Assembly: GCF_044324875.1 (NCBI RefSeq)
Contig: NZ_CP172185.1
DNA length: 64,000 nt
Strand: one strand, 5' to 3'
From: Escherichia coli
GTDB lineage: Bacteria > Pseudomonadota > Gammaproteobacteria > Enterobacterales > Enterobacteriaceae
In this document: positions 1,687-43,406 of the stretch, piece by piece
How positions within the stretch are numbered: the first letter of the stretch is position 1
Layout of the letters: each line of letters opens with the position of its first letter
Notes under the pieces: model-generated
Database searches by the model: none
What the model saw: the letters and a program-made list of their open reading frames with translations, nothing else
What the model was told of the DNA's origin: nothing
Program-made: the position numbers and the translations under genes

Positions 1687-2612
<926 letters not shown>

Positions 2613-2663
2613 AGTTCCTCCAGATGGATCGGGTTATGAATGCATAAATCTTATCATAATCAT

Positions 2664-3896
2664 TTATGCGACGGGGTCTATTTCCCAGCCAGTGCGGCAA
2701 TCAGTAAAGAGGCCTTGCGGGCAGCGTCCTAATGTCACCCGCGTTGCCTGCTGCCAGTTAGCGAAATCAGTAATCGCCTGACGTAACCCTTTTTGCAGCG
2801 TTGTCGTTGGTTTAATGCCTTCCTGTAACCACAGAGAGATAACTTCAAGGATGCCTGTCTGGCGATGCATTTTGGCATCCATTCGCCCAACTAATTGCCC
2901 ACGATGTAATAACGGCAGAACAAAATAGCCATACTGGCGTTTCGGCGCTGGGGTATAGCACTCCAGCCGGTAGCTAAAATCAAAAAGCTGCTCTGCGCGT
3001 TTACGATCCCAGACAACAGGATCAAAAGGCGAAAGTACCGCGCTGTGCGTTGCAGTGAGCTTTCCGGCCAGCGCACGCTCGAGTAGCGGCAGCAAATCAG
3101 CATGCAGCCAAATATTGCCCAATTTTTCAACATGCACAGCAATGATTTGCCGCTGTTCAGCCCTCGCTTCGCGCCACGCTGCCAGTGCCGGACGTTTCAG
3201 CCGATAGTAATCTGCCAGCCACTGTTCGCGGAATATTCCCAGGCTACGCGCACTGTTATCCAGCATGATGATTTCTGCTTCTGTTTGCGAAACGAGATCG
3301 CGCTCATCATCCCAGTCAGGCATGACACGGTAGGTTAAATCATAAACGCGCTGGAAGTTGCGCCGTTCAATCACCATCACTTTCCCGGCAGTAAATAAAC
3401 CTTCCAGATGCCGTTTATGCGGCTTCCATTCCCACCAGCCGCTTGCACCTTTACGAGGATGCTCAAAATCGGCTGAACGTACCGGCCCCTTATCATGAAT
3501 ATGCTGAATTAACTGTGCAATTTCCGCCTCATGTTCCTGCATCCAGGCGTCATTGTATTTCCAGCCCATTTTTTCAGGTGCCAGCATGCGGTGGCGAATA
3601 AGACGAAAGTCGCTACGCGGCATAAAGCAGGCTTCATGCGCCCAGTATTCCATTAATTCGCCACGCGCCAGAGACTCATCCAGCCACTGGGCAGGATAAT
3701 TTCCCAGACGACTGAAAAGCACCAGATATGGACTACGGGCAACAATATTAATGGTATCGATTTGCAGCAAGGACATGCGGGAGATCGTTGCCGGAATATC
3801 CTCCAACGATGCTCGACGGCGGGGTTTGTTTAACAGGCCTTGCGCGGCGAGGTGAAGATTACGCGCATCAGCAAGAGAGAGGTGCGGCAGCGACAT
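2664..3896 (-). CDS. ycaQ: Winged-helix DNA-binding protein YcaQ (410 aa)
   Basis: 410-aa ORF in conserved position between lpxK and ycaR. Confidence 0.9.
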   Translation of the reverse strand: MSLPHLSLADARNLHLAAQGLLNKPRRRASLEDIPATISRMSLLQIDTINIVARSPYLVLFSRLGNYPAQWLDESLARGELMEYWAHEACFMPRSDFRLIRHRMLAPEKMGWKYNDAWMQEHEAEIAQLIQHIHDKGPVRSADFEHPRKGASGWWEWKPHKRHLEGLFTAGKVMVIERRNFQRVYDLTYRVMPDWDDERDLVSQTEAEIIMLDNSARSLGIFREQWLADYYRLKRPALAAWREARAEQRQIIAVHVEKLGNIWLHADLLPLLERALAGKLTATHSAVLSPFDPVVWDRKRAEQLFDFSYRLECYTPAPKRQYGYFVLPLLHRGQLVGRMDAKMHRQTGILEVISLWLQEGIKPTTTLQKGLRQAITDFANWQQATRVTLGRCPQGLFTDCRTGWEIDPVA

Positions 3897-3932
3897 TCAT
3901 GACTCCATCAATCGAACGCTGCCGCGGCGTAA

Positions 3933-6700: not shown

Positions 6701-8965
6701 CTACCCGTTATCCACTGGCACGCCAAACCACTGATGATACCAACGAGGTAAAATTTGCTCCCTGAGGCTGCTAATCCGCCAGCCTTGCGCTGAAAAATTG
6801 ACCGTTATTTGCCCCTGATGAGGAGTATCAAGCCACTTATAACCCTGTTGTTGATAGCGATGTTTAACTTTGCTTGAGGGCAGTCGCCATGCGTTATAGC
6901 GCGATGCCGATGCGAGTGCCACTTTTCCATTCACTCGCTGAATTAATGGCAACGATGATGAGGTATTACTGCCATGGTGAGGTATCTGAAGTAATGTTGC
7001 CTGCATTTGCTGCCAGTAACGGCTTAGCATCTTTTGTTCAGCGGGGGCTTCAATATCACCGGTTAGAAGAATGCTATTCGTCCCGTCATCAACCTTAACC
7101 ACACAGGAATGGTTATTTCCTTTATCGTTGCTACCTTGTAAAGGCCAGTGCGCGCTGAAACGCAATCCTTGCCATTGCCACGCTTCGCCACGCACACAGG
7201 GCTGATGATGTTCCCAGTTTAACGGACTTCTGATCCATAACATCGGCCATGTATGCAATATTGAGTCCAGCCCTCCCCGGTGATCCAGATGTTCATGACT
7301 CAGAATAACGCCTTCCGGTTCAAGATTATGCCAGTGGAGCCAGGGGATAATCAGTTGTTGCCCACTATCTCCTTCAGGCCAGGCCAGTCCCGTGTCATAG
7401 AGAATCGCTTTGCCGTTTCTGGCTATCACCATTGCCAGCCCTTGCCCGACATCAAGCATGTACACTTGCCACTCGTCAGGTCGAGGTTTTTGCCACAGCG
7501 GCCAGCACATCAGCAAGCCTCCAGCCACACACATTGCTGGCAACGTTCGCCAGGCGTTTAATCGCCATACCACCAGTAAGAACCATGGGGAAAATGATAG
7601 CCATTGCCAACGTTCAGCAATGTTGATCCACCCTTCCGGCAAACTCTTTAACCCCCAGAAAAGTAAAGCCAAAGACCGGTCGGCAAGAAAGCATAACCCC
7701 TGTTCCAGGATTAACGGCCCGCTTAAATGCACAACCATCGCGGCGAGGATTAATGGAACCGTGATAAATGTCACCAGGGGAATTGCAAAAAGATTTGCAA
7801 TAAACGAGGTCAGACTAATGCCATGAAATATGACGATTTGCACGGGCATAAGCAGGAGTGTGATTCCCAGTTGCAGATGGATGAGGGAAACAACCGCACG
7901 CAATACCGGCGGCAGCTGCCACTCAGGACAGGGAAACCACTGATACCAAAAAATCAGTGCCGCGACCGCAGCGGCAGAGAGCCATAAACTTTGCGAGAGA
8001 ATGGCAACAGGATCCATCAGCAAAATTGCCGCCAGACAACATATCCACACATCCCAGCCACTCCATTGTCGCCCACTTAACTTAAGCATTCCCCACATGG
8101 CAAGCGCCACCACGGTACGCAATGCAGGAGGTTGCATCCCAGTCAGCCAGGCATAAAAAGCAGCACAGCAGATTCCGCCAATTAATGGCATTTGCCAGTG
8201 GATCCAGCGCCCAGGCAGAAAAACTTGCCCACCGCGAATGAGTCCGGCAGCCAGCAACGCCGCAAAAGCGATATGCAATCCCGATATCGCCATTAAATGC
8301 GCCGTTCCAGTATCGCGCATGATATTTTTGATTTCTTTGGGAACGGATAACCGTTCCCCCATACCTAAACCAAGAATAACCGCATTCCACGGATAGGGTT
8401 GCAGCGTTGTTTGTAATGACGCCAGATACTGTGCACGCAAGCTACAATTCGGTTCAATGACACTTGCCTGCAGAAAGCGGCCGGTCAGCGGCTGATGCTG
8501 GGCAATGGCATAACGCTGGCTATCAAAGCTGCCATCATTAAGTTGGCCATGAACTGCACGAACTTTGAGTTTCATTGACCATAGTTGTCCGGCACAAACC
8601 GCTTGCGGGAGATATTCACCATACAGCACGAGGCCTGGCGCAGGGAATATACGTCGACCTTGTAGATGAGTGATTTGACCGTAATGAGTGGTCATGCCGT
8701 CAGTAGCAGTGATCTCAACTATTGCATCCTGCGTCGCGCCAGTTAAGGTTTCTCCTGCCCACAAAATTTGCTTTGCCGCTGATATGCCCCAAAGAAAAAA
8801 CAGCAACGTCAGCGCGATATAACGGACGGCTTTAACAGGAATAAATGCCAGTACGCAGGCGAAGACAGTCAGAAACGCAAGGGTTAATGTCCCAGGCAAT
8901 TGGGGCAAAACCAGCAACGGAAAAATTCCGCAAATTATGCATACGCCGACTGTCGTTATTTTCAT
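6701..8965 (-). CDS. ycaI: ComEC/Rec2-family inner membrane protein YcaI
   Basis: Start chosen at internal ATG (MKITTVG) preceded by GGGAGGGG SD; ~754 aa polytopic membrane protein with C-terminal metallo-beta-lactamase-like HxHxDH. Confidence 0.88.
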   Translation of the reverse strand: MKITTVGVCIICGIFPLLVLPQLPGTLTLAFLTVFACVLAFIPVKAVRYIALTLLFFLWGISAAKQILWAGETLTGATQDAIVEITATDGMTTHYGQITHLQGRRIFPAPGLVLYGEYLPQAVCAGQLWSMKLKVRAVHGQLNDGSFDSQRYAIAQHQPLTGRFLQASVIEPNCSLRAQYLASLQTTLQPYPWNAVILGLGMGERLSVPKEIKNIMRDTGTAHLMAISGLHIAFAALLAAGLIRGGQVFLPGRWIHWQMPLIGGICCAAFYAWLTGMQPPALRTVVALAMWGMLKLSGRQWSGWDVWICCLAAILLMDPVAILSQSLWLSAAAVAALIFWYQWFPCPEWQLPPVLRAVVSLIHLQLGITLLLMPVQIVIFHGISLTSFIANLFAIPLVTFITVPLILAAMVVHLSGPLILEQGLCFLADRSLALLFWGLKSLPEGWINIAERWQWLSFSPWFLLVVWRLNAWRTLPAMCVAGGLLMCWPLWQKPRPDEWQVYMLDVGQGLAMVIARNGKAILYDTGLAWPEGDSGQQLIIPWLHWHNLEPEGVILSHEHLDHRGGLDSILHTWPMLWIRSPLNWEHHQPCVRGEAWQWQGLRFSAHWPLQGSNDKGNNHSCVVKVDDGTNSILLTGDIEAPAEQKMLSRYWQQMQATLLQIPHHGSNTSSSLPLIQRVNGKVALASASRYNAWRLPSSKVKHRYQQQGYKWLDTPHQGQITVNFSAQGWRISSLREQILPRWYHQWFGVPVDNG

Positions 8966-9120
8966 GCACCCCTCCCTGTTTATGGAAAGTGTGCAACTTT
9001 GTTGAGCGGTTGTCTGGTGGGAGTTTTGCGTTCCCCGAGGCACGTTCAGAAGAATTTAACGAGAGGGTGAAAACTGCTCAAAACTCTGCGAGGCAGCCTC
9101 CAGTTCCAGATTAGAGAAAT

Positions 9121-9148
9121 GAAAAAAGCACCCGACAGGTGCTTTTCT
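9121..9148 (-). terminator. Rho-independent terminator downstream of ihfB
   Basis: Minus-strand hairpin AGCACC-N5-GGTGCT followed by T6. Confidence 0.6.
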
Positions 9149-9171
9149 CGCGTTCAAGTTTGAGTAAAAAC

Positions 9172-9456
9172 TTAACCGTAAATATTGGCGCGATCGCGCA
9201 GTTCTTTACCTGGTTTAAAGTGAGGAACGTATTTTCCTTCCAGTTCTACTTTATCGCCAGTCTTCGGATTACGTCCGGTACGTGGTGCGCGGTAGTGCAA
9301 AGAGAAACTGCCGAAACCGCGGATTTCAATACGCTCGCCCTGCGCAAGAGTCGAGGCCATATGCTCCAGCATCTCTTTTACTGCATCTTCAACCGTCTTG
9401 GCGGGAATGTGCGATTGCTGGGTGGCAAGTCTTTCTATCAATTCTGACTTGGTCAT
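9172..9456 (-). CDS. ihfB: Integration host factor beta subunit
   Basis: 94-aa [13 protein letters not shown]...[17 protein letters not shown] fold signature. Confidence 0.97.
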
Positions 9457-9615
9457 GATTCCTCCGGTTCCTTAAAGGCAAATTTAGCGGCTGCTGTTGC
9501 TGCATTGATTAAGGGCGGCCGTAGCCGCCCTTAGTGCTTGATTACAGGACGAAACCTGCAATCTGTCAAGTAAACTCAACAAACTTCGGAATAAAAATCC
9601 CGAAGAGTCAGAGAA

Positions 9616-11289
9616 TTACTCGCCTTTAGCTGCTTTGAAAGCTTCAGCCATTGCGTTGTTGGAGAAGTTTGCATCTTCCTGTTTGTTAACAGTTGCGATT
9701 GCATCTTTCTCGTCAGCTTCGTCTTTCGCACGAACAGACAGGCTGATTGCGCGGTTTTTACGATCAACGCCGGTGAATTTAGCTTCAACTTCGTCGCCAA
9801 CGCTCAGAACCAGGGTAGCGTCTTCAACGCGGTCACGGGATGCTTCAGAAGCACGCAGGTAACCTTCAACGCCGTCAGCCAGTTCTACGGTTGCGCCTTT
9901 AGCGTCAACTGCAGTTACTTTACCGGTTACGATAGCGCCTTTCTTGTTCAGAGCAACCCAGTTGTTGAACGGATCTTCTGCGAGCTGTTTAACGCCCAGG
10001 GAGATACGTTCACGTTCTGCGTCAACCTGCAGAACAACTGCAGCGATTTCGTCGCCTTTTTTGTATTCACGAACTGCTTCTTCGCCTGCAACGTTCCAGG
10101 AGATGTCAGACAGGTGAACCAGGCCGTCGATGCCGCCGTCCAGGCCGATGAAGATACCGAAGTCAGTGATAGACTTGATTTTACCTTCAACACGGTCACC
10201 CTTGTTGTGGGTTTCCGCGAACTGCTGCCACGGGTTAGCTTTGCACTGTTTCAGACCCAGGGAGATACGACGACGTTCTTCGTCGATATCCAGAACCATA
10301 ACTTCCACTACATCGCCAACGTTAACAACTTTGGACGGGTGGATGTTTTTGTTGGTCCAATCCATTTCGGAAACGTGTACCAGGCCTTCAACGCCTTCTT
10401 CGATTTCAACGAAGCAGCCGTAGTCGGTCAGGTTGGTCACGCGACCAGTCAGTTTGGTACCTTCCGGATAACGTTTAGCGATAGCTACCCACGGATCTTC
10501 GCCCAGCTGTTTCAGGCCCAGGGATACACGGGTACGTTCGCGGTCGAACTTCAGCACTTTAACAGTGATTTCGTCGCCCACGTTGACGATTTCGCTCGGA
10601 TGCTTAACGCGTTTCCAGGCCATGTCAGTGATGTGCAGCAGGCCGTCAACGCCGCCCAGATCAACGAATGCACCGTAGTCAGTGAGGTTCTTAACGATAC
10701 CTTTAACTTCCATGCCTTCCTGCAGGTTTTCCAGCAGCTGATCGCGCTCTGCGCTGTTTTCGGATTCGATAACGGCACGACGAGAAACAACAACGTTGTT
10801 GCGCTTCTGATCCAGCTTGATTACTTTGAATTCAAGCTCTTTGCCTTCCAGGTGCAGAGTGTCACGCACCGGACGAACGTCTACCAGAGAACCTGGCAGG
10901 AACGCACGAATACCGTTCAGCTCAACAGTGAAGCCGCCCTTAACTTTGCCGTTGATAACACCGGTAACAGTTTCAGCATCTTCGTAAGCTTTTTCCAGCG
11001 TGATCCAGGCTTCGTGACGTTTAGCTTTCTCACGGGACAGCAGAGTTTCACCGAAGCCGTCTTCTACTGCGTCCAGAGCAACGTCAACTTCGTCACCTAC
11101 CTGGATTTCCAGCTCGCCCTGGGCGTTTTTGAACTGCTCAGCCGGGATGGCGGACTCAGATTTCAGACCAGCGTCAACCAGTACTACGTCTTTGTCGATA
11201 GCAACAACAACGCCACGAACGATAGAACCCGGGCGGGTTTCGATTTCTTTTAAGGACTCTTCAAAGAGTTGAGCAAAAGATTCAGTCAT
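9616..11289 (-). CDS. rpsA: 30S ribosomal protein S1
   Basis: 557-aa [24 protein letters not shown] with six S1 repeats; strong codon bias creates a spurious antisense ORF. Confidence 0.98.
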
Positions 11290-11399
11290 GTTTAATCTTC
11301 AGGTTTATATTTAACGTCCACCTGGCTCCATGCCGGATGGGGTTGTTTAACATACCCGCTGTCATTCCATTGCAACGGGGGTACTGCAAATTCGGTCGC

Positions 11400-12083
11400 T
11401 TATGCGAGAGCCAATTTCTGGCGCGCGTATTGTAGCGCTTTTTCAATCACTTGCTCAATGCTTAAGGTGGTGGAATCCAACACTAAAGCATCGGCTGCCG
11501 GAACCAGTGGCGCTACCGCTCGGTTACGATCGCGGTCGTCGCGTTCTTTGATCTCGGCCAAAAGGCGCTCAAAGTTAACACTAAAGCCCTTCTCCTGCAA
11601 CTGTAGCATGCGGCGATGCGCACGTTCTTCCGAGGAGGCGTCAAGGAAAATTTTCACTGGCGCATCAGGGAATACCACCGTTCCCATGTCGCGGCCATCG
11701 GCAATCAAGCCTGGTAATTCGCGAAACGCGCGTTGGCGACGCAATAATGCTTCACGAACGCGTGGGAATGCCGCGACTTGTGAAGCAGCATTCGCCACTT
11801 CCTGAGTACGAATTTCGCCACTGACATCTTCCCCTTCGAGGATCACTTCCAGATTGCCATTGGTCGACACAAAACGTACATCCAGATGGGATGCCAGCGG
11901 CACAAGCGCATCTTCCGATGCAACATCAACATGGTGATGTAATGCCGCCAGTGCCAGTACGCGATAAATTGCACCCGAGTCCAGCAGATGCCATTGCAAC
12001 GCTTCCGCCATAGCCTTACACAAGGTGCCTTTCCCTGCACCGCTTGGGCCATCAATGGTAATAACCGGGGCAATTGCCGTCAT
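11400..12083 (-). CDS. cmk: Cytidylate kinase
   Basis: 227-aa ORF with P-loop GPSGAGKGT. Confidence 0.97.
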
Positions 12084-12255
12084 CTTTATCTCCTTAAAAC
12101 AGGCGTACCGTTAACATAACCGCGCGCATTATACGCGCCGACGCCACAAATCGTTAACGTTGTGTGCAAAAACCAGTTTTGTCTGTATTCAGATGGGGAT
12201 TTATTGCGCAATTATAGCGGGCTGGCAGAAGACCAGCCCGAAAGATGACAATGAT

Positions 12256-13020
12256 TTACTTACCAGAGGCGATACGATCACGGATGTGTTGCGCACGCTC
12301 TGTTGATGGTGGGTGAGAGTCAAACATGGACTGGGTACGACCGCCATCCAGGCTGGCCAATTTTTCAAAGCTGCCAACCAGCCCCTGGGTGCTGATGCCA
12401 CGTTTCTTCAACAGATCAAAGGAGAAATCATCTGCTTCGGACTCTTTATCGCGGGAGTATTTAGCATTGATCGCGCCTTCTGCGATATCACCTAATTGTG
12501 AGCGAGAAAGCTGGGAAGCCACACCGCTGGTAGCGGAAATCGCATCACGTGCGGCAACGATCGCATAAGAAGCTTTCATTTCAGCCAGCGAGTGACCCAA
12601 CGCGACGTGGCCCAGTTCATGACCCAGAACGCCTTCAATTTCGTTGTCGTTCATCATGTCCATCAGGCCACTGTAGACACGAACACAGCCGTTCGCCATC
12701 GCCCATGCGTTGACGTCGCTGGTCATATAAACCTTATAGTTGACCGGCGTGCCATTAATATTGTTACCCAATGCTTTGGCGATTTTTGCCAGACGTTTAC
12801 CGTACTTGCTGGATTTACTTGCGACTTTATTGCCGCTGTCCATTTCGACACAGCCCTGATTGGCGATTGCTTTAGCATCAGCATCGCTTAATGTTGCGGC
12901 TTTATAAGCATTCAGACCTGAGCTGATAGCCAAATCGGTATTAATACCGTGCGTATTCTGACATCCTGTCAGTAAGGCTGCAGAGGTCGCAATCGCCAGC
13001 AATAATTTAGTATTCTTCAT
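12256..13020 (-). CDS. ycaL: M48-family metalloprotease lipoprotein YcaL
   Basis: Lipobox LLTGC and HELGH zinc motif; start set at second ATG (MKNTKLL), alternative start at 13029. Confidence 0.85.
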   Translation of the reverse strand: MKNTKLLLAIATSAALLTGCQNTHGINTDLAISSGLNAYKAATLSDADAKAIANQGCVEMDSGNKVASKSSKYGKRLAKIAKALGNNINGTPVNYKVYMTSDVNAWAMANGCVRVYSGLMDMMNDNEIEGVLGHELGHVALGHSLAEMKASYAIVAARDAISATSGVASQLSRSQLGDIAEGAINAKYSRDKESEADDFSFDLLKKRGISTQGLVGSFEKLASLDGGRTQSMFDSHPPSTERAQHIRDRIASGK

Positions 13021-13117
13021 GTGAATCATCCGTTGATTAATTATATATAAACATTATGTATCAATAAGTTACATTGATAATTAACGCTACCATTAATAAA
13101 AATACCCCACAAGGTCC

Positions 13118-13148
13118 GAAAAAAAACGCCGGCAATGTGCCGACGTCT
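13118..13148 (-). terminator. Rho-independent terminator after aroA
   Basis: Minus-strand hairpin (GACGTCGGCA / TGCCGGCGT) followed by T8. Confidence 0.6.
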
Positions 13149-13189
13149 TTGAAAAGAAAGGATTGTCTATGTTATCGCCCGTTATTCAT

Positions 13190-14473
13190 TCAGCCGGGTT
13201 GACTTATCCGCGCCAATTGCTCGAAATAGTCTGGAAAAGTTTTAGCGGTACATTTTGGATCAAGAATCGTCACAGCCGTATCTGACAACGCCACCAGCGA
13301 GAAACACATCGCCATCCGGTGATCATTGTATGTTGCGATCTCGGCAAAGTTCAGTTTTTCCGGTGGAGTGATACGAATGTAATCGTGCCCCTCTTCTACT
13401 TCCGCACCAACTTTACGCAGTTCTGTTGCCATCGCAAACAGGCGATCGGTCTCTTTAACACGCCAGTTATAGATATTGCGCAGCGTGGTGGTGCCTTTTG
13501 CAAATAACGCCGCCGTGGCAATGGTCATCGCCGCATCAGGAATATGGTTCATATCCATATCAATAGCGTTCAGTTCACCCCGCGTGCAGGAAATATAATC
13601 ATCGCCCCAGCAAATGGTCGCGCCCATTTTTTCCAGCACATCAGCAAAGCGAATATCACCCTGCATACTGTTGCGTCCAATGCCGGTCACTTTTACAGTG
13701 CCGCCTTTGATTGCTGCTGCTGCCAGGAAGTAAGAAGCCGAAGATGCATCGCCTTCGACCAAATAAGTACCCGGAGACTGATAAGACTGCCCGCCTTTTA
13801 CGACAAATTGTTGATAGTGCTGATTTTCAATTTCAACACCAAACGTCTTCATCAGATTGAGTGTGATGTCGATATAAGGTTTAGAAACCAGATCGCCTTT
13901 AATACGAATAACCGTATCTTCCGGCGCAAGAGGCGCAGTCATTAATAGTGCGGTGAGGAACTGGCTGGAAACGGAGCCATCAACGTCAACGTTGCCGCCA
14001 GTAAAGCCGCCCTGTAAACGCAATGGTGGATAATTTTCTTGTTCCAGGTAAGTGATCTTCGCCCCGCCCAGGCGCAGCGCATCCACCAGATGACCAATCG
14101 GGCGCTCTTTCATACGCGGCTCACCAGTCAGCACAATATCATTGCTACCCAGACAAAGAGCTGCCGCCAGCGGGCGCATTGCCGTTCCGGCGTTTCCGAG
14201 GAACAACTCCAGGGCACCTTCTGCGTGTAATGGACCGCCGTTACCGATAATTTCGCAACGCGTACGATCAGCTGAAAGCGTATAGCTTACCCCTAACGCT
14301 GCTAATGCATTCAGCATATGGCGCACGTCATCGCTATCCAGCAGATTGGTTAATACTGTTTTGCCGTGTGCTAATGCCGCCAGCAATAAAGCGCGGTTAG
14401 AAACGCTCTTGGAACCGGGCAGATTAATAGTGCCATCGACACGAGCGATGGGTTGTAACGTCAGGGATTCCAT
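13190..14473 (-). CDS. aroA: 3-phosphoshikimate 1-carboxyvinyltransferase (EPSP synthase)
   Basis: 427-aa [26 protein letters not shown]. Confidence 0.98.
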
Positions 14474-14493
14474 GAACTCAACTCTCTACAACA

Positions 14494-14524
14494 GAAATAA
14501 AAACCCCACAGGCTGACTGTGGGG
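14494..14524 (-). terminator. Intra-operon terminator/attenuator between serC and aroA
   Basis: Minus-strand hairpin CCCCACAG-N6-CTGTGGGG followed by TTTTTATTT. Confidence 0.6.
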
Positions 14525-14543
14525 ATTAAGCAAAATTTCGGCA

Positions 14544-15632
14544 TTAGCCGTGACGGCGTTCGAACTCAATCATGAAGTCTGTCAGCGCTTTAACGCCTTC
14601 CAGTGGCATGGCGTTATAAATGGACGCGCGCATTCCGCCGACCACACGGTGACCTTTCAGTGCATGAAGGCCAGCAGCAAAAGACTCTTCAAGGAACAAT
14701 TTGTCAAGCGCACTGTCCGCCAACTGGAACGGCACGTTCATCCGCGAACGGTTAGCTTTCGCCACGTCATTGCGGTAGAAATCGCTGTTATCAATCACCC
14801 CATACAGCAGTTCTGCTTTTTGCTGATTGATTTTATCCATTGCAGCTACACCGCCGTTCGCTTTCAGCCATTTAAAGACCAGACCAGACAGATACCAGGC
14901 AAATGTCGGCGGCGTGTTAAACATGGAGTCGTTATCGTTGAGAATGGAATAATCCAGAATCGACGGACACGCGATATTCGCTTTGCCCAGCAAATCTTCA
15001 CGAACGATGACGATTGTCAGGCCAGCCGGGCCGATATTTTTCTGCGCGCCAGCGTAAATTACACCATAACGGCTGACGTCAATCGGACGGGAAAGAATGG
15101 TTGAAGAGAAGTCGGCGGCGACCACCACATCTTTGCCGAAGTCTGGCGTTTCGTCGATAGCGATACCGTCGATGGTTTCATTCGGGCAGTAATGCATATA
15201 AGCAGCATTATCAGAGAGTTGCCATTCGCGCATTGGCTTAACCGCGCGCAGACCATCAACAGTCACTTTGGCGTCGAAGACATTAGGCGCGCAATATTTT
15301 TTCGCTTCTTTAATGGCACTTGCCGCCCAGTAACCAGCATCAACATAATCTGCGGTGGTTTTATCACCAAGAATATTCAGCGGTACAGCAGCAAACTGAC
15401 CACGACCGCCGCCGTGGCAGAACAATACTTTGTAGTTGGAGGGGATGTTAAGAAGATCGCGAAAATCCTTCTCGGCTTCCTCTGCAACCTGAATGAACTC
15501 TTTGCCACGGTGACTCACTTCCATCACCGACGTACCAAGACCGTTCCAGTCGCGCAGTTCCTGTTGAGCCTGTTTAAGCACCTCTGCCGGTAGCATTGCC
15601 GGACCAGAACTAAAATTGAAGATTTGAGCCAT
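14544..15632 (-). CDS. serC: Phosphoserine aminotransferase
   Basis: 362-aa [18 protein letters not shown]. Confidence 0.98.
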
Positions 15633-19730: not shown

Positions 19731-22013
19731 ATGTCCGAGCTTAATGAAAAGTTAGCCACAGCCTGGGAAGGTTTTACCAAAGGTGACTGGCAGAATGAAG
19801 TAAACGTCCGTGACTTCATTCAGAAAAACTACACTCCGTACGAGGGTGACGAGTCCTTCCTGGCTGGCGCTACTGAAGCGACCACCACCCTGTGGGACAA
19901 AGTAATGGAAGGCGTTAAACTGGAAAACCGCACTCACGCGCCAGTTGACTTTGACACCGCTGTTGCTTCCACCATCACCTCTCACGACGCTGGCTACATC
20001 AACAAAGCGTTGGAAAAAGTTGTTGGTCTGCAGACTGAAGCTCCGCTGAAACGTGCTCTTATCCCGTTCGGTGGTATCAAAATGATCGAAGGTTCCTGCA
20101 AAGCGTACAACCGCGAACTGGACCCGATGATCAAAAAAATCTTCACTGAATACCGTAAAACTCACAACCAGGGCGTGTTCGACGTTTACACTCCGGACAT
20201 CCTGCGTTGCCGTAAATCCGGTGTTCTGACCGGTCTGCCAGATGCTTATGGCCGTGGTCGTATCATCGGTGACTACCGTCGCGTTGCGCTGTACGGTATC
20301 GACTACCTGATGAAAGACAAACTTGCACAGTTCACCTCTCTGCAGGCTGATCTGGAAAACGGCGTAAACCTGGAACAGACTATCCGTCTGCGCGAAGAAA
20401 TCGCTGAACAGCACCGCGCTCTGGGTCAGATGAAAGAAATGGCTGCGAAATACGGCTACGACATCTCTGGTCCGGCTACCAACGCTCAGGAAGCTATCCA
20501 GTGGACTTACTTTGGCTACCTGGCTGCTGTTAAGTCTCAGAACGGTGCTGCAATGTCCTTCGGTCGTACCTCCACCTTCCTGGATGTGTACATCGAACGT
20601 GACCTGAAAGCTGGCAAGATCACCGAACAAGAAGCGCAGGAAATGGTTGACCACCTGGTCATGAAACTGCGTATGGTTCGCTTCCTGCGTACTCCGGAAT
20701 ACGATGAACTGTTCTCTGGCGACCCGATCTGGGCAACCGAATCTATCGGTGGTATGGGCCTCGACGGTCGTACCCTGGTTACCAAAAACAGCTTCCGTTT
20801 CCTGAACACCCTGTACACCATGGGTCCGTCTCCGGAACCGAACATGACCATTCTGTGGTCTGAAAAACTGCCGCTGAACTTCAAGAAATTCGCCGCTAAA
20901 GTGTCCATCGACACCTCTTCTCTGCAGTATGAGAACGATGACCTGATGCGTCCGGACTTCAACAACGATGACTACGCTATCGCTTGCTGCGTAAGCCCGA
21001 TGATCGTTGGTAAACAAATGCAGTTCTTCGGTGCGCGTGCAAACCTGGCGAAAACCATGCTGTACGCAATCAACGGTGGCGTTGACGAAAAACTGAAAAT
21101 GCAGGTTGGTCCGAAGTCTGAGCCGATCAAAGGCGATCTCCTGAACTACGATGAAGTGATGGAGCGCATGGATCACTTCATGGACTGGCTGGCTAAACAG
21201 TACATCACTGCACTGAACATCATCCACTACATGCACGACAAGTACAGCTACGAAGCCTCTCTGATGGCGCTGCACGACCGTGACGTTATCCGCACCATGG
21301 CGTGTGGTATCGCTGGTCTGTCCGTTGCTGCTGACTCCCTGTCTGCAATCAAATATGCGAAAGTTAAACCGATTCGTGACGAAGACGGTCTGGCTATCGA
21401 CTTCGAAATCGAAGGCGAATACCCGCAGTTTGGTAACAACGATCCGCGTGTAGATGACCTGGCTGTTGACCTGGTAGAACGTTTCATGAAGAAAATTCAG
21501 AAACTGCACACCTACCGTGACGCTATCCCGACTCAGTCTGTTCTGACCATCACTTCTAACGTTGTGTATGGTAAGAAAACGGGTAACACCCCAGACGGTC
21601 GTCGTGCTGGCGCGCCGTTCGGACCGGGTGCTAACCCGATGCACGGTCGTGACCAGAAAGGTGCAGTAGCCTCTCTGACTTCCGTTGCTAAACTGCCGTT
21701 TGCTTACGCTAAAGATGGTATCTCCTACACCTTCTCTATCGTTCCGAACGCACTGGGTAAAGACGACGAAGTTCGTAAGACCAACCTGGCTGGTCTGATG
21801 GATGGTTACTTCCACCACGAAGCGTCCATCGAAGGTGGTCAGCACCTGAACGTTAACGTGATGAACCGTGAAATGCTGCTCGACGCGATGGAAAACCCGG
21901 AAAAATATCCGCAGCTGACCATCCGTGTATCTGGCTACGCAGTACGTTTCAACTCGCTGACTAAAGAACAGCAGCAGGACGTTATTACTCGTACCTTCAC
22001 TCAATCTATGTAA
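19731..22013 (+). CDS. pflB: Pyruvate formate-lyase (glycyl radical enzyme)
   Basis: 760-aa ORF with glycyl-radical motif RVSGY near C-terminus. Confidence 0.98.
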
Positions 22014-22055
22014 TTAGATTTGACTGAAATCGTACAGTAAAAAGCGTACAATAAA

Positions 22056-22081
22056 GGCTCCACGAAAGTGGGGCCTTTTTT
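22056..22081 (+). terminator. Rho-independent terminator after pflB
   Basis: GGCTCCAC-GAAA-GTGGGGCC followed by T-run. Confidence 0.7.
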
Positions 22082-22204
22082 AGCACGAGAGCCTTTTTTG
22101 TCAGCTATCTATACTTTAAGGTGACTGCCAAAACAGACTCGACGTAGCCTTCGAGCTGCGCACCAACACGGCCTCAGATGGGCCACATCTGGAGAAACAC
22201 CGCA

Positions 22205-22945
22205 ATGTCAGTTATTGGTCGCATTCACTCCTTTGAATCCTGTGGAACCGTAGACGGCCCGGGTATTCGCTTTATCACCTTTTTCCAGGGCTGCCTGATG
22301 CGCTGCCTGTATTGTCATAACCGCGACACCTGGGACACGCATGGCGGTAAAGAAGTTACCGTTGAAGATTTAATGAAAGAGGTGGTGACCTATCGCCACT
22401 TTATGAACGCTTCCGGCGGCGGCGTTACCGCATCCGGCGGTGAAGCAATCCTGCAAGCTGAGTTTGTTCGTGACTGGTTCCGCGCCTGCAAAAAAGAAGG
22501 CATTCATACCTGTCTGGACACCAACGGTTTTGTTCGTCGTTACGATCCGGTGATTGATGAACTGCTGGAAGTAACCGACCTGGTAATGCTCGATCTCAAA
22601 CAGATGAACGACGAGATCCACCAAAATCTGGTTGGAGTTTCAAACCACCGCACGCTGGAGTTCGCCAAATATCTGGCGAACAAAAATGTGAAGGTGTGGA
22701 TCCGCTACGTTGTTGTCCCAGGCTGGTCTGACGATGACGATTCAGCGCATCGCCTCGGTGAATTTACCCGTGATATGGGCAACGTTGAGAAAATCGAGCT
22801 TCTCCCCTACCACGAACTGGGCAAACACAAATGGGTGGCGATGGGTGAAGAATACAAACTTGATGGTGTTAAACCACCGAAGAAAGAGACCATGGAACGC
22901 GTGAAAGGCATTCTTGAGCAGTACGGTCATAAGGTAATGTTCTAA
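22205..22945 (+). CDS. pflA: Pyruvate formate-lyase activating enzyme (radical SAM)
   Basis: Start at [14 protein letters not shown] (246 aa); CxxxCxxC radical SAM motif (CLMRCLYC). Confidence 0.96.
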
Positions 22946-22955
22946 TTTCCCCGTA

Positions 22956-22988
22956 AAGCGGCAACTTTTTTGAGTTGCCGCTTTTTTA
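22956..22988 (+). terminator. Rho-independent terminator after pflA
   Basis: AAGCGGCAACT...AGTTGCCGCTT followed by TTTTTTATT. Confidence 0.7.
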
Positions 22989-23154
22989 TTCCGCGCTGCA
23001 TAAATAATTCAGAGCTCTATTTCTAACGCCCTTACAGCACAGCTTCCAAATGTATTACCCAAACCGCCAGTATATGTCCTGCGGCTTGCGCGCATTTCTC
23101 GATTATGTAAAAACGGGTCAGATCTGCCAGAGTCAGCGTCACCGGCCACAATAA

Positions 23155-24585
23155 TTATTTGCCATTCGCTTTACGCGCCAGCAGCGGGAATATCAGCCCT
23201 AATCCTACCAGCACAAACGGCGTTGCAACATTCAGCGCCAACTGGAATGTCCACTCTGCGGTGAAGGCTTCCATTTTCGGGAAAATACCAGTCAGGCAGG
23301 CAAAAGCGGTAAAGGCAAAACACCAAATTCCGACGGTCATTGCCAGCGGCTTATTACGAATAAAGACATATTCTGGTTTATATTTCTGCGCCAGGCGAAC
23401 AACTGCAATAAATGCAACAAATACCCATAAATAACGCAGCGGCATCACTACCGAGTTAAGATTCAACAGCCATTTATAGAGATTGTTCATATCACCAATG
23501 CCGAGAGTCGGCAGCATTATCAGGATCGCCACCAGCACCAGGGTCAGAAAATAGCCATTAACGGGCGTACCAGAAGCGTTGGTACGACATAAACTGGCTG
23601 GAATATATTTGCTGTCAGCATCGCCTAATAACACTTTAAGCGGCGCATCAATCGAGAATACCAGCGCAGCTACTTGTCCCAGGGTATTCGCAATGGCATA
23701 AATCACCATTAAAGTATTACCCATGTTGTAATACTCGCCCAGCTTCTGAAAGGCGTAATACTGACCGTTAGTCATTAAGTCATCCGGGATATTACGCGAG
23801 TCAAACATCATCCCCATCGCCAGTGAGCCCAGAATGGCACAAACCGCAACCATCACCGCCAGGCATAACATCCCTTTTGGAAATTCTTTTCCTGGGTTGC
23901 GCGTTTGATTAACGTAAGGAGAAATCTTCTCTGCTCCGCCAACCGCGAAAACCAGCATTGAAATAGTGGTAATGTAGGTAAAGTCGATATGAGGAATGAA
24001 CGTTTCCCAGGTAATGTTTGTGGTCGCAATATGCACTTCAGTAATTGCAGGCGCGGTTACCGCCATCGCCACATACAGGAGCGACATAACAAACATCGCA
24101 ATCCCTGCCACAGAACCGACGATTTTCAGCGATTTCATACCGCGTGAAGCAACCCACATAAAGAAGATAAACAGCACCAGCGTTAACCCCTGTAACGCTA
24201 CGACTGAATATTCTTTGATTAACGAACCGTCGCCTTTCATCGCCCAACCGAGCGCAATCAGTATTGCCTGGGGTTTTTGTGCCAGATAGGGAATATGCAC
24301 TACCCAGTAGGTCCACGCGGCGAGGTAAGCCAGTCCGGGTCCCATCGTGTGTTTAATCCAGGTACTGACCCCGCCCTTCCCATCTTTGAAGGTCGAGCCT
24401 AACTGACCAACAATTAGCGCATAAGGTGTGAAATAGAGCGCAAAGATAAACACCCATGAAAAAACAACCACCAGCCCCTGGTTGGCGTAGTTATTAACAA
24501 CGTTGCCAAAACCCCAGACAGTGATAAAAGACATCAGCGCAATGTTGTACCATCGCAGCTGTTTTTCCTGAACATTCCCAGCCAT
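23155..24585 (-). CDS. ycaM: APC-family putative transporter YcaM
   Basis: Start set at ATG giving MAGNVQEKQLRW (476 aa); polytopic membrane protein. Confidence 0.88.
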   Translation of the reverse strand: MAGNVQEKQLRWYNIALMSFITVWGFGNVVNNYANQGLVVVFSWVFIFALYFTPYALIVGQLGSTFKDGKGGVSTWIKHTMGPGLAYLAAWTYWVVHIPYLAQKPQAILIALGWAMKGDGSLIKEYSVVALQGLTLVLFIFFMWVASRGMKSLKIVGSVAGIAMFVMSLLYVAMAVTAPAITEVHIATTNITWETFIPHIDFTYITTISMLVFAVGGAEKISPYVNQTRNPGKEFPKGMLCLAVMVAVCAILGSLAMGMMFDSRNIPDDLMTNGQYYAFQKLGEYYNMGNTLMVIYAIANTLGQVAALVFSIDAPLKVLLGDADSKYIPASLCRTNASGTPVNGYFLTLVLVAILIMLPTLGIGDMNNLYKWLLNLNSVVMPLRYLWVFVAFIAVVRLAQKYKPEYVFIRNKPLAMTVGIWCFAFTAFACLTGIFPKMEAFTAEWTFQLALNVATPFVLVGLGLIFPLLARKANGK

Positions 24586-24794
24586 AGACAAATCCTTCGC
24601 CAAAATTAAAGGGGCATCTGTAAAACGAGGGATTATGCGCGGCAAATAAGAAGTGCGGAAATAGCGAAATGCAAAATTATAACCTGCTGCACATTTTATT
24701 TTGAAACGAATAAAATTTTGAAAAAAGCAAGTCAGAGAGAAGAAACAGAAAAGCAGAGTGTGAAACAGTAAGTTCACACTCTGCGTTAATTCAT

Positions 24795-25943
24795 TTACAC
24801 GTGAGCAACGGGTTTCGGCGTATGACCGGCGTTGCGAAGCAGCATCAGCAAATAGATAAACGATACGCTGGCGATCATGATAAACAATAAATTATCGGAG
24901 AAATTCTGCATTAGCATAGCGGTAAATGACGGGCCAAGCAGACTTCCCACGGTATAGCTCAACAGTAAGGCCTGGTTCATCGCCACCAGTTGATGATGTT
25001 CAACTTTCTCGCAAGCCCATGCCATCGCCACCGGATATAGCGTAAAGCCAGCGGCACCGAGGATGAATAACGCTGGGGCCATCGCCGCCTGGCTAAGCAT
25101 CGCGATACTGCCGAGAATGACGACAAAGACCTGAACACGCAACACCAGCAGTCGACCAAACTTATCCGCCAGACGTCCAATCGGCCATTGTCCAAGGATA
25201 CCCGCACTGACCAGTACCGCCATCCAGAAACCAATGCTGGCATTGCTCACCCCTTTGTGATTGAGGAACAGCGGCATCAGGCCATATAGAGATCCCAGAA
25301 CGATTCCTGAGATAATGCAGCCATTCACGCCAAGCCGCGCCTGACGGAGTTTTAGCATTGACGTAATTGACGTCGAATCATGGTTTTCAGCCTGCTGATT
25401 CAGCACACGCGTAAACAACAGCGGTAAGATCCCTGCCAACGTCAAACCTGTAACCCACGGCAATACGGACATCAGCTCGGTTGAAACTTTGCTGACCAGT
25501 AACTGGCCTAAAAACGTTCCCACGTAATAAACCATCATATACGCAGCAAGCAAACGCCCACGGTTACGTGACGTCCCACTGCACATCAGCGCGCTCTCAA
25601 CAACCACCCAAATCATGGCACAGCCGACGCCGGCGACAAAACGCCAAGCCAACCAGCTCCAGAATCCAATCATCAGGCCAAGGCCGGCACAGCCAGCGGC
25701 AAAAATGAAGGAGGCCAGATAATAGCTGCGGTTAAAGCCAATGCGCTTAATGACATACCCTGTCAGCAATGTACCGACCAGGTTGCCGGTAAAATAGGAT
25801 GAGCTGACAACGCCTACCTGCCATGTGGACATGTGTTCCTGGGCGAGCCAAAGCGGCACGAGTGTATTTAACACTGCGATCGCCAGAGTCAACAAAAGCA
25901 GGCCAGACAGCAAAAGCATGACAGGCCGGGTATACGTGGACAT
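24795..25943 (-). CDS. ycaD: MFS transporter YcaD
   Basis: 382-aa ORF, 12-TM MFS-type sequence. Confidence 0.92.
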
Positions 25944-31041: not shown

Positions 31042-31153
31042 AGGGAGACAAAAAAAGCGCCCGCAGGAGATTTAACGGTACTTACTCCTCTTGCTGATTT
31101 CCTTATTTTTCAATAAGTAAACAAAAACAAGGGGAGCAAATTATCACAAATAA

Positions 31154-40761: not shown

Positions 40762-40860
40762 TGCGTATTCCGCTCTATTCGATCACGGATTGGCATCGAA
40801 GTCCGATCAGCGATTCGCATCCATTCGATCAACCGGGAACTTAACTTTTTCTACCGCTTT

Positions 40861-41616
40861 TTAACGCGTTTTTTCGCTGCTTTCCACTACCGGGGGATTT
40901 TTCCTCAGTGACTCTCCCTGAAGGACCACTCGGTGTGAGTTATGTACCAGTCTGTCCAGGATGGCATCTGCTGTTGTTGGGTTCTCCATCAGACCATGCC
41001 ATTTATCTACCGGGAACTGGCTTACCACTATCGTGCTGCTTTGTCCGTAACGATCCTCTATGAGCTCCAGAAGGTCATTACACTGGGCGTTACTTAACTG
41101 TTCCAGCCCCAGATCGTCCAGGATTAGAACCTGTATTTTTTGCAACTGTTTCAGATATTTCAGCCAGCTGCCATCAACACGTCCCTGAGCCAGTTGTTCC
41201 AGTAATCGCCCGGTTCTACAGTACCGGACGCTGTGTTTCTGTCGACATGCCTGTTCGCCCAGCGCATTGGCTATCCAGCTCTTGCCACATCCTGTCGGAC
41301 CGGTTATCAGCAGGTTTTTCCTGTGGGTTATGTAGTGGCCGTTCAGCAGTTCTCTCATCTGTTCAGCCCGCAGACCTCTTGAGGCCGGATAGCGCAGCCC
41401 TTCCGGTGTTGCCTGGTATTTCAGGCCGGCATTTTTTCTCAACCGTGCCACACGGCTGTTTTCCCTGCTCAGAAGCTCGTCATCAACCAGCAGCGTCAGC
41501 CTTTCCTCGAACGACAGTTCGTCGTAGGTCTGAGGCGTTTCCCGCTGCCGTATCAGGCTCCCGGCCATCGCCGGGAGTTTCAGTTGGGTCAGTTTGTTTA
41601 ACAGGTTATCACTCAT
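40861..41616 (-). CDS. istB: IS21-family helper ATPase IstB
   Basis: Start MSDNLLNKL; Walker A GPTGCGKS; 251 aa. Confidence 0.93.
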   Translation of the reverse strand: MSDNLLNKLTQLKLPAMAGSLIRQRETPQTYDELSFEERLTLLVDDELLSRENSRVARLRKNAGLKYQATPEGLRYPASRGLRAEQMRELLNGHYITHRKNLLITGPTGCGKSWIANALGEQACRQKHSVRYCRTGRLLEQLAQGRVDGSWLKYLKQLQKIQVLILDDLGLEQLSNAQCNDLLELIEDRYGQSSTIVVSQFPVDKWHGLMENPTTADAILDRLVHNSHRVVLQGESLRKNPPVVESSEKTR

Positions 41617-41632
41617 ACTGTTGTTCCTTCTG

Positions 41633-43168
41633 TCAGTGGTAGTAGCCCGGACCACGCAGGTTTTCATGCTCTGAAGCATATGCCGGATGTTGTTCGCCCT
41701 GGCGGGATAATGGAAGCTCCAGGTTCTCCCGATGGTGACGCAGCAGATTGTCGATAAAGCGTCTGTCAGGGGCGTTATAGTGCAGGGCAACGTAACAGGC
41801 CTTTTCCAGCCGTTCCGGGCCGTATTTTTTCTGAAGTGCCAGCAGCCCCAGAACTGCACGATAAGCCAGTTCCGGATGGGGTTTTGCCTTCAGCATGGAT
41901 TCAACCACCCGGCCTGTGGACGGGCCCGTACGTTTTCCCTGCTCGATCAGGCGTTCCGGTGTCCATGTCCCGTGCTGCCGGTGGCGCTCTGGCATGTGAA
42001 GCGGATTGGTTGTGTGTTTATATTCATGTGTGCTGCGCGGATGTTGCGCCACACACTGCCCCTTGTGCCAGAGCTGTACCACCGACTGCCCCGCCTTCAG
42101 TGACAGACGCTGACCGACCAGTTCGTGTGGAACGGAGTACCAGTGACGGGCATATTCAACGTGGTAGTCAGGGCCAACCTTCACAGCTTTGTATTCCGTG
42201 TATTCATAAGGTGCCAGAGGCAGCGGAGAGAGTGCTGGCGCATCCAGTATGCGGAAGCGTTCTGCACGGGTTTGATTGCCGTACCCCTTCATTGGCCGGT
42301 TATTCATGTCTGTCAGTAACTCCCTAAGGCGCGCATTCAGCGCCCTGAGCGTGTGGAAGGTTTCATTACGGATGCGGGCAAGAAGCCATCGTTCAACGAT
42401 GAGGACGCCGTTTTCTGCTTTTGGTTTATCTTTAGGTTTGCGTGGTCGGGCCGGGATGATAACCGTGCCATAGTGCTCAGCCAGTGCCTGATAACTGTCG
42501 TTGATGACAGGCTCATATCGATCGGCCTTTTTCACTGCGCTTCTGAGGTTATCGGGGATGAGCAGCTTCGGTACGCCGCCCAGGAAGGTCAGGCAACGGC
42601 TGTGGGCATTTAACCATGACATCATGTCCTGACCTTCGCACGCTTCAACGTAGGTATAGTTGGACGCCCCCATTACGGCCACGAAGATTGCCACGCGGCG
42701 TATCTCACCGGTGTCCGGATTAATAACAGGAACCGTAGGACCACAGAAGTCGATAAAAAGCTTTTCGCCGGCACGATGCTCCTGGCGCATGGAGAGACGT
42801 CGCGTTTTTTTCCACTCCCGGTAGCAACGGCAGAAGTGCGAGTATCCCATCGCTTTGTTACCCGCCTGTGCCTTGTATTCCATCCACAACAGTTGCCGCG
42901 TCACACCTGGTTTTCTCATTTCCGTATCGAAGTACAACATGTCAGGCATTACAAGCTCTGATGCAAAGGTGTCTTTGGGCGGAAAAATGAGTTTCTCCAG
43001 CGTGTCATGGGATATATCAGCAGGTAATGGCCATGACAGAGAAGAGGCTTTGAAGCGGGCAAGAACCTCAAAAACGGTTGAGGCGCTGATGTGTAACGTC
43101 AGTCCGATACAACGGTTAGTCAGCTTCTTGTCGAACTTGAGCTGAAGGATCTTAAAACAGGTTTCCAT
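41633..43168 (-). CDS. istA: IS21-family transposase IstA
   Basis: Start METCFKILQ with AGGAG SD; DDE integrase core region; 511 aa. Confidence 0.92.
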   Translation of the reverse strand: METCFKILQLKFDKKLTNRCIGLTLHISASTVFEVLARFKASSLSWPLPADISHDTLEKLIFPPKDTFASELVMPDMLYFDTEMRKPGVTRQLLWMEYKAQAGNKAMGYSHFCRCYREWKKTRRLSMRQEHRAGEKLFIDFCGPTVPVINPDTGEIRRVAIFVAVMGASNYTYVEACEGQDMMSWLNAHSRCLTFLGGVPKLLIPDNLRSAVKKADRYEPVINDSYQALAEHYGTVIIPARPRKPKDKPKAENGVLIVERWLLARIRNETFHTLRALNARLRELLTDMNNRPMKGYGNQTRAERFRILDAPALSPLPLAPYEYTEYKAVKVGPDYHVEYARHWYSVPHELVGQRLSLKAGQSVVQLWHKGQCVAQHPRSTHEYKHTTNPLHMPERHRQHGTWTPERLIEQGKRTGPSTGRVVESMLKAKPHPELAYRAVLGLLALQKKYGPERLEKACYVALHYNAPDRRFIDNLLRHHRENLELPLSRQGEQHPAYASEHENLRGPGYYH

Positions 43169-43406
43169 AGTGCTCCTGGATTTTCTCTTTCTGGACATTG
43201 ACGTCTCCACTGGTTTAAACACGGCAATGGAGACTGTGGTGAAAAGAGTTAATTCCCGGAGTGACTGGCAGGATGCCAATCAATGATCGGAAGCATGCCA
43301 AATCGTGATCGATTGTGATGCCAAACTGTGATCGGAGATGGATGCCAAATCATGATCGATTCGAATGCCAAACTGCGATCGATTCAGATGCCATTTTGCA
43401 TCAGTC

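Follow-up and report, generated by a model that had tools for sequence, protein, structure and literature searches.

Which sequences separate pflA from ycaM in the 64,000-nucleotide stretch of Escherichia coli DNA analyzed here (henceforth the window, whose coordinates are used throughout), and what became of the two genes that occupy this position in K-12? As judged from the stop codons, at 22943-22945 for pflA and at 23155-23157 on the complementary strand for ycaM, the spacer covers 22946-23154 and is exactly 209 bp long, in agreement with the gap of about 210 bp described in a first-pass annotation of this DNA. The same annotation placed ycaK and ycaN between pflA and ycaM in K-12. The MG1655 annotation confirms this, the order being ycaD, ycaM (b0899), ycaN (b0900, opposite strand), ycaK (b0901) and pflA (b0902) with a pflA-ycaM interval of 1.7 kb that contains both genes, and when K-12 was compared with the window, no direct pflA-ycaM adjacency was found in K-12. 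The comparisons presented below make it very probable that the 209-bp interval is what an old chromosomal deletion left behind as its scar, the two genes affected being dispensable, ancestral to the genus and repeatedly lost.

The genes bordering the interval are intact. On the plus strand, pflB (19731-22013) is followed by pflA (22205-22945), which encodes the 246-aa pyruvate formate-lyase activating enzyme, as supported by translation and by the annotation of relatives; the translated product has no internal stop and does not differ from K-12 PflA at any residue. On the minus strand, ycaM (23155-24585) encodes an APC-family amino-acid permease of 476 aa (translation; Pfam AA_permease_2) with one amino acid difference from K-12 and no internal stop, and its stop codon abuts that of ycaN, as in K-12. 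The neighbouring ycaD (24795-25943, minus strand) is likewise intact, with two amino acid differences from K-12. A mechanically called ycaM open reading frame extends to a GTG at 24777 (540 aa), whereas relatives are all annotated with a start that yields 476 aa; the annotation of ycaM in strain 135 is 9 nt shorter.

Read from left to right, the interval consists of the pflA terminator, a ycaK 3' remnant, the junction and a ycaN 3' remnant, which together account for its whole length. A terminator scan predicted an intrinsic (Rho-independent) terminator for pflA at 22955-22990 on the plus strand (hairpin 22955-22984), shortly after the pflA stop codon, with a 13-pair stem including 6 G-C pairs, a 4-nt loop and a subsequent T-run, TTTTATT. 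The terminator sequence is common to K-12, JJ2434, E. albertii and other Escherichia. In the first-pass annotation this terminator was followed directly by the ycaM stop, a reading that has to be corrected: about 170 nt lie in between, made up of the ycaK 3' flank and end followed by 113 nt of the ycaN 3' end. On these sequence comparisons, the interval is best described as a deletion scar composed of gene remnants rather than as a plain intergenic spacer.

The ycaK remnant, identified by global alignment and translation, occupies 22997-23043 on the minus strand and is degenerate, comprising the 3' flank, the stop codon and the last three codons of the gene. The stop codon is TTA at 23032-23034, that is, TAA on the minus strand, and the last codons read A-V-L-stop in the window versus D-A-L-stop in K-12. 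Using blastn against K-12, positions 22000-23001 align at 98.6% and positions 23042-24000 at 96.7%, and the 40 nt of the window between these two blocks stand opposite 1,511 bp of K-12 (NC_000913 948773-950283). Global alignment of the 40-nt stretch that BLAST had left unaligned with the ycaK 3' side of K-12 gave 45/62 matches (z=6.2 relative to shuffles), and 51/68 matches (z=14) were obtained in the same way for this ycaK-side stretch and the E. albertii scar. Pairwise global alignment was preferred here, as MAFFT alignment of the scars with the full K-12 interval had placed the ycaK-side remnant on the ycaN side. The 40 nt were also considered as filler DNA or an IS footprint; this was rejected in view of their homology to other Escherichia scars and to the K-12 ycaK 3' side.

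The remainder of the interval, 23041-23154 on the plus strand (BLAST block from 23042), is a pseudogene fragment of ycaN, a LysR-type regulator gene, consisting of the last 37 codons and TAA. Its in-frame translation, SFQMYYPNRQYMSCGLRAFLDYVKTGQICQSQRHRPQ*, agrees with K-12 YcaN in 35 of the 37 C-terminal residues and terminates at the same stop codon; at the nucleotide level, the remnant is ∼97% identical to K-12. It has neither a start codon nor an HTH domain. In Pfam, K-12 YcaN shows HTH_1 at residues 7-63 and LysR_substrate at residues 91-290; HTH_1 is lost and LysR_substrate incomplete in the window remnant, which thus does not qualify as a functional LysR regulator, and a Pfam scan of the 37-aa fragment returned no domain match. 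In RefSeq (PGAP), the equivalent 111 nt carry the label 'incomplete; missing N-terminus' or 'LysR family transcriptional regulator'.

Both gene ends are thus homologous, syntenic and in the same orientation, their interior is missing, and an intact version exists in close relatives. As remnants of both ycaK and ycaN survive at the junction, the interval points to a deletion. Where the first-pass annotation had offered lineage-specific gene content or a deletion as alternatives, both apply: the remnants lie at the junction, and the allele is found in 1,021 of the 5,426 complete E. coli genomes surveyed. A deletion of ∼1.47 kb would have taken out nearly the whole of ycaK, the divergent promoter region between the two genes, and ∼265 codons from the start of ycaN, leaving over as non-functional sequence the pflA terminator, a decayed stretch of ycaK 3' flank together with the last three codons, and the last 37 ycaN codons. 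The ycaN 3' end would survive by its position, since it abuts the stop codon of the retained ycaM and a deletion reaching further would damage that gene.

The deletion junction, located at 23039-23050 by the alignments, reads GCTTCCAAATG. It is similar both to CTACCATATC, which lies close to the 3' end of ycaK in K-12, and to CTTCCAGATC, located around codon 265 of K-12 ycaN; the two K-12 sequences agree in 8 of 10 positions, as read from K-12 and not from the true parent allele. This hybrid-like copy of the CTACCATATC/CTTCCAGATC repeat, a short one read from an allele other than the parent, weakly suggests short-homology slippage, and the event may accordingly be pictured as a RecA-independent deletion of the slippage type at a short imperfect direct repeat. 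Neither an IS nor an att-like sequence, as a sign of deletion by a mobile element, was detected at the junction within 22946-23154. The 45-nt left side of the scar is only ∼62% identical to K-12, versus ∼98% for the rest of the region. Because these ∼45 nt are far more diverged than their surroundings, no recent, simple deletion starting out from a K-12-like allele can account for the scar, and the history must be that of an old allele, possibly moved by recombination.

Allele counts among the 5,426 complete RefSeq genomes distinguish three common states. Intact ycaK-ycaN, represented by the K-12 1,511-bp segment, is present in 3,318-3,341 genomes, among them K-12 derivatives, BL21, HB101, O104:H4 and IAI39 (98.6% identical to K-12). 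The window-type scar is carried by the 1,021 genomes mentioned above (∼19%; 988 with a 52-nt junction probe), including O157:H7 strains such as EDL933, O169:H41 and strain 042. A larger loss that also took ycaM and created a pflA-ycaD junction occurs in 1,047 genomes, including JJ2434 (ST131) and SF-468; here, the pflA terminator is joined through 4 nt to the ycaD terminator (JJ2434 locus 7243-7346). The few dozen remaining genomes include other, rarer events, some of which are IS1-associated. In CUPS04 (2526-3918), IS1 stands in place of the entire ycaN, most of ycaK and the 3' part of ycaM, while two IS1 copies interrupt ycaN in EC96; these IS1-associated losses indicate that ycaK and ycaN are dispensable. 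The counts also dispose of an assembly or collapse artefact in the window, which we reject outright because the same contiguous junction recurs identically in the reference strain 042 and in 1,021 complete genomes that were assembled independently.

By what we take to be the established strain assignments, strains of phylogroups A, B1 and F (IAI39) include carriers of the intact state, those of D (042) and E (O157:H7) carriers of the scar, and those of B2 carriers of the largest deletion, a pattern that is drawn from a handful of named strains and is indicative only. A simple phylogroup D/E/F trait was rejected as a description of the scar, IAI39 having intact genes. As a marker to place the strain or lineage, a use the first-pass annotation had envisaged, the locus serves in part: it excludes K-12-like and JJ2434-like (ST131) alleles, but it identifies no lineage. 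Over 10.5 kb, the window is 99.3% identical to O169:H41, 99.0% to 042, 98.6% to IAI39, 98.1% to K-12 and 97.9% to JJ2434. The best 24-kb match in the collection is strain 135, from chicken, at 99.3%, with no closer genome. At ∼0.97 Mb, SMS-3-5 and IAI39 carry unrelated genes because of a large inversion.

Elsewhere in the window, a P2-like prophage lies between dmsA and serS (31068-64000), with genes for an integrase, a Cox-family protein, a replication endonuclease, a portal protein, a terminase and a P2-family capsid protein. Homology to the prophage-free strains IAI39 and 042 ends at ∼31067-31073, and serS is situated beyond the window end. Strain 135 carries a prophage that is 99.6-99.9% identical but lacks window positions 40762-43400.

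For the ancestry of the locus, one genome per species was scanned for relatives of YcaD and the neighbouring genes were mapped. Every other Escherichia species recovered with ycaM and pflA adjacent retains the ycaN 3' end. In the Escherichia species L004 and L008 (93% and 90% identical to the window, respectively), about five ycaK codons are kept and ycaN begins 11 nt later; in L005 (95.7% identical), about 40 more nt of ycaN are kept and the ycaK end is lost. All three species resemble the window in having ycaK-ycaN deleted and the ycaN 3' end preserved, but they display two other junctions and a K-12-like flank sequence. As the ycaN 3' end is kept by all, with different junctions, the alignments indicate that the pair was present in the Escherichia ancestor and was lost at least three times within the genus, besides which E. 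coli underwent the larger deletion and the IS1 events.

The polarity could in principle be reversed, such that the window represents the ancestral state and K-12-like strains gained ycaK-ycaN by insertion. The pair is indeed not universal at the family level: in Salmonella, several Citrobacter, Kluyvera and Yokenella, ycaM is next to pflA with no ycaN or ycaK, and in many other genera ycaD is next to pflA or other cassettes lie between. A gain of this kind is nevertheless hardly credible. The window keeps the last 37 ycaN codons in frame, together with the ycaK stop and last codons, and an insertion cannot leave such fragments in genomes without the insert. Moreover, three different junctions are found in Escherichia, all retaining the ycaN 3' end, and since the Salmonella and Citrobacter spacers carry no trace of ycaN, any gain would predate the genus Escherichia rather than fall in the K-12 lineage. 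The reading retained is therefore one of presence in the ancestor followed by repeated loss.

Further afield, Enterobacteriaceae bacterium 89 (9234-11667) has homologues of ycaN (68% aa) and ycaK (60% aa) next to pflA; it belongs to a distant genus, and its locus is without ycaM and has an extra LysR-like ORF. The pair at pflA may perhaps be older than Escherichia, or it may have been separately inserted in this bacterium. Across the Enterobacteriaceae, the interval from ycaD or ycaM to pflA is variable, ranging from ∼45 bp to ∼6.6 kb; several Citrobacter, for instance, have a ∼264-aa ORF of secreted or lipoprotein-like type there, Pluralibacter has another LysR gene, and Raoultella, Klebsiella and some Citrobacter have a multi-gene cassette of ∼5 kb. 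In a record labelled E. coli E69 (8625-14984), synteny breaks 3' of ycaM, where a hairpin gives way to AT-rich DNA containing large, unrelated ORFs; a ycaN remnant is absent, and pflA does not appear within 6 kb. Its 90.6% identity to the window suggests that this record is not from E. coli in the strict sense.

How old the scar allele is can be approached through E. albertii, for which the comparison comprises one genome, the type strain NBRC 107761. Its scar has the same junction position as the window, the same flank-specific sequence and a length within 1 nt; it differs by ∼25% divergence in the ycaK-side remnant and by only 52% identity over the last 40 nt of the ycaN remnant. To find further contexts, E. 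albertii YcaM was looked up as an exact protein, with no match. The segment of the window comprising the terminator and the ycaK remnant is 86.5% identical to E. albertii, which equals the genome average, but only 68-76% identical to L004, L005 and L008, although these species are overall much closer to the window than E. albertii is; from ∼23053 onwards, the ycaN remnant of the window is K-12-like. Because the segment matches E. albertii at the genome average while it matches closer species and K-12 poorly, the scar allele appears, as a view held loosely, to be old relative to the diversification of E. coli, either as a long-standing polymorphism or as an import. Recombination would then have homogenized all but the immediate junction, and the stretch concerned is very short.

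A stronger version, in which the scar has coexisted with the intact allele since before the E. coli-E. albertii split, or has crossed between species, with recombination confining linkage to ∼100 bp around the junction, is a tentative proposal that we rate as doubtful though worth considering. If it were true, it would, together with at least three other independent losses, suggest that the YcaN/YcaK module has repeatedly been selected for and against, rather than simply decaying neutrally. Alternatively, the scars of E. coli and E. albertii might each have their own origin, the same short repeat having undergone slippage more than once, with no shared ancient deletion. The imperfect direct repeat at the junction could be a hot spot, and other Escherichia lineages have independently deleted the same genes within a few nucleotides of this junction. 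Such a coincidence would leave unexplained, however, why both scars share the flank-specific CATAAATAATTCAG.GC..TATTT.TA, which is absent from K-12, IAI39, L004, L005 and L008, and it also sits badly with the identity values given above for the segment made up of the terminator and the ycaK remnant, on which E. albertii exceeds the much closer Escherichia species. We consider independent origin unlikely; the flank and the identity pattern point to an allele common to E. coli and E. albertii.

The persistence of the ycaN 3' end in all Escherichia scar alleles also raises the question of whether the fragment is kept for a function of its own, as a 3' UTR or terminator of ycaM, a small ORF (ATG at 23050, 34 aa) or a small RNA. 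In line with this idea, the window and E. albertii share 95% identity over the 62 nt of 23053-23114. This value is not unusual, though, as 11.6% of all 62-nt windows in the alignment of the two reach 95%, and in L004, L005 and L008 the remnant is 71-85% identical, versus 88-96% for the flanking genes; the L008 remnant additionally has a 7-nt deletion. The lower conservation of the remnant relative to its neighbours fits neutral decay. Likewise, scans within the ycaN remnant found no terminator-like site on the minus strand, no match in Rfam, and a single weak promoter-like match at the level expected from shuffles, all of which weighs against a function. Strains of the JJ2434 type are entirely without the fragment, and its position explains its retention more simply, a longer deletion being one that would damage ycaM. 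The ycaN remnant is thus probably not functional, and a role of its own as the reason for its retention strikes us as very improbable.

As for the consequences, deletion of ycaN in BW25113 altered expression of the adjacent ycaC, ycaD and focA and gave a negative phenotype on formate, from which YcaN was concluded to regulate adjacent y-genes (PMC9068703). YcaK is a putative NAD(P)H oxidoreductase with a flavodoxin fold, according to the K-12 annotation and Pfam. Extrapolating from the work in K-12, the strain of the window would be devoid of YcaK and of the YcaN regulator, and control of ycaC, ycaD and focA by YcaN would be inapplicable in this strain and in ∼40% of sequenced E. coli. Both are dispensable accessory genes that Escherichia has lost repeatedly. 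In practical terms, the pflA-ycaD region offers a cheap three-state marker, the states being intact, window-type scar and larger loss including ycaM. Beyond such bookkeeping the significance is small, the scar fragment being already annotated as a pseudogene in RefSeq.

Set against known loci, the window is collinear with the K-12 locus (b0899-b0902) in its flanks, at ∼98% identity, with pflB and pflA plus terminator on one side and the ycaN 3' end, ycaM, ycaD and ycaC on the other; it differs in that the 1,511 bp of K-12, namely the 5' 796 nt of ycaN, the divergent intergenic region, all of ycaK and 25 nt of flank, are represented by 40 diverged nt. In 042 (EC042_RS29340), O169:H41 Res13-Lact-PER13-34 (IMQ31_RS06230) and O157:H7, junction and remnant are identical to the window, and PGAP annotates, between pflA and ycaM, a pseudogene of 111 nt labelled 'missing N-terminus'; the 042 scar shows only point differences from the window, at 3 mismatches. 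The JJ2434/SF-468 allele has lost ycaK and ycaN at the same locus, with its left breakpoint just past the pflA terminator, but lacks ycaM and the ycaN fragment as well, such that window positions 22988-24744 have no counterpart. Taken with these loci, the interval amounts to an ordinary polymorphism of gene content, one that public annotation already shows, and it is only mildly unusual for the age of an allele common to E. albertii and for the repeated, independent loss of the same gene pair.
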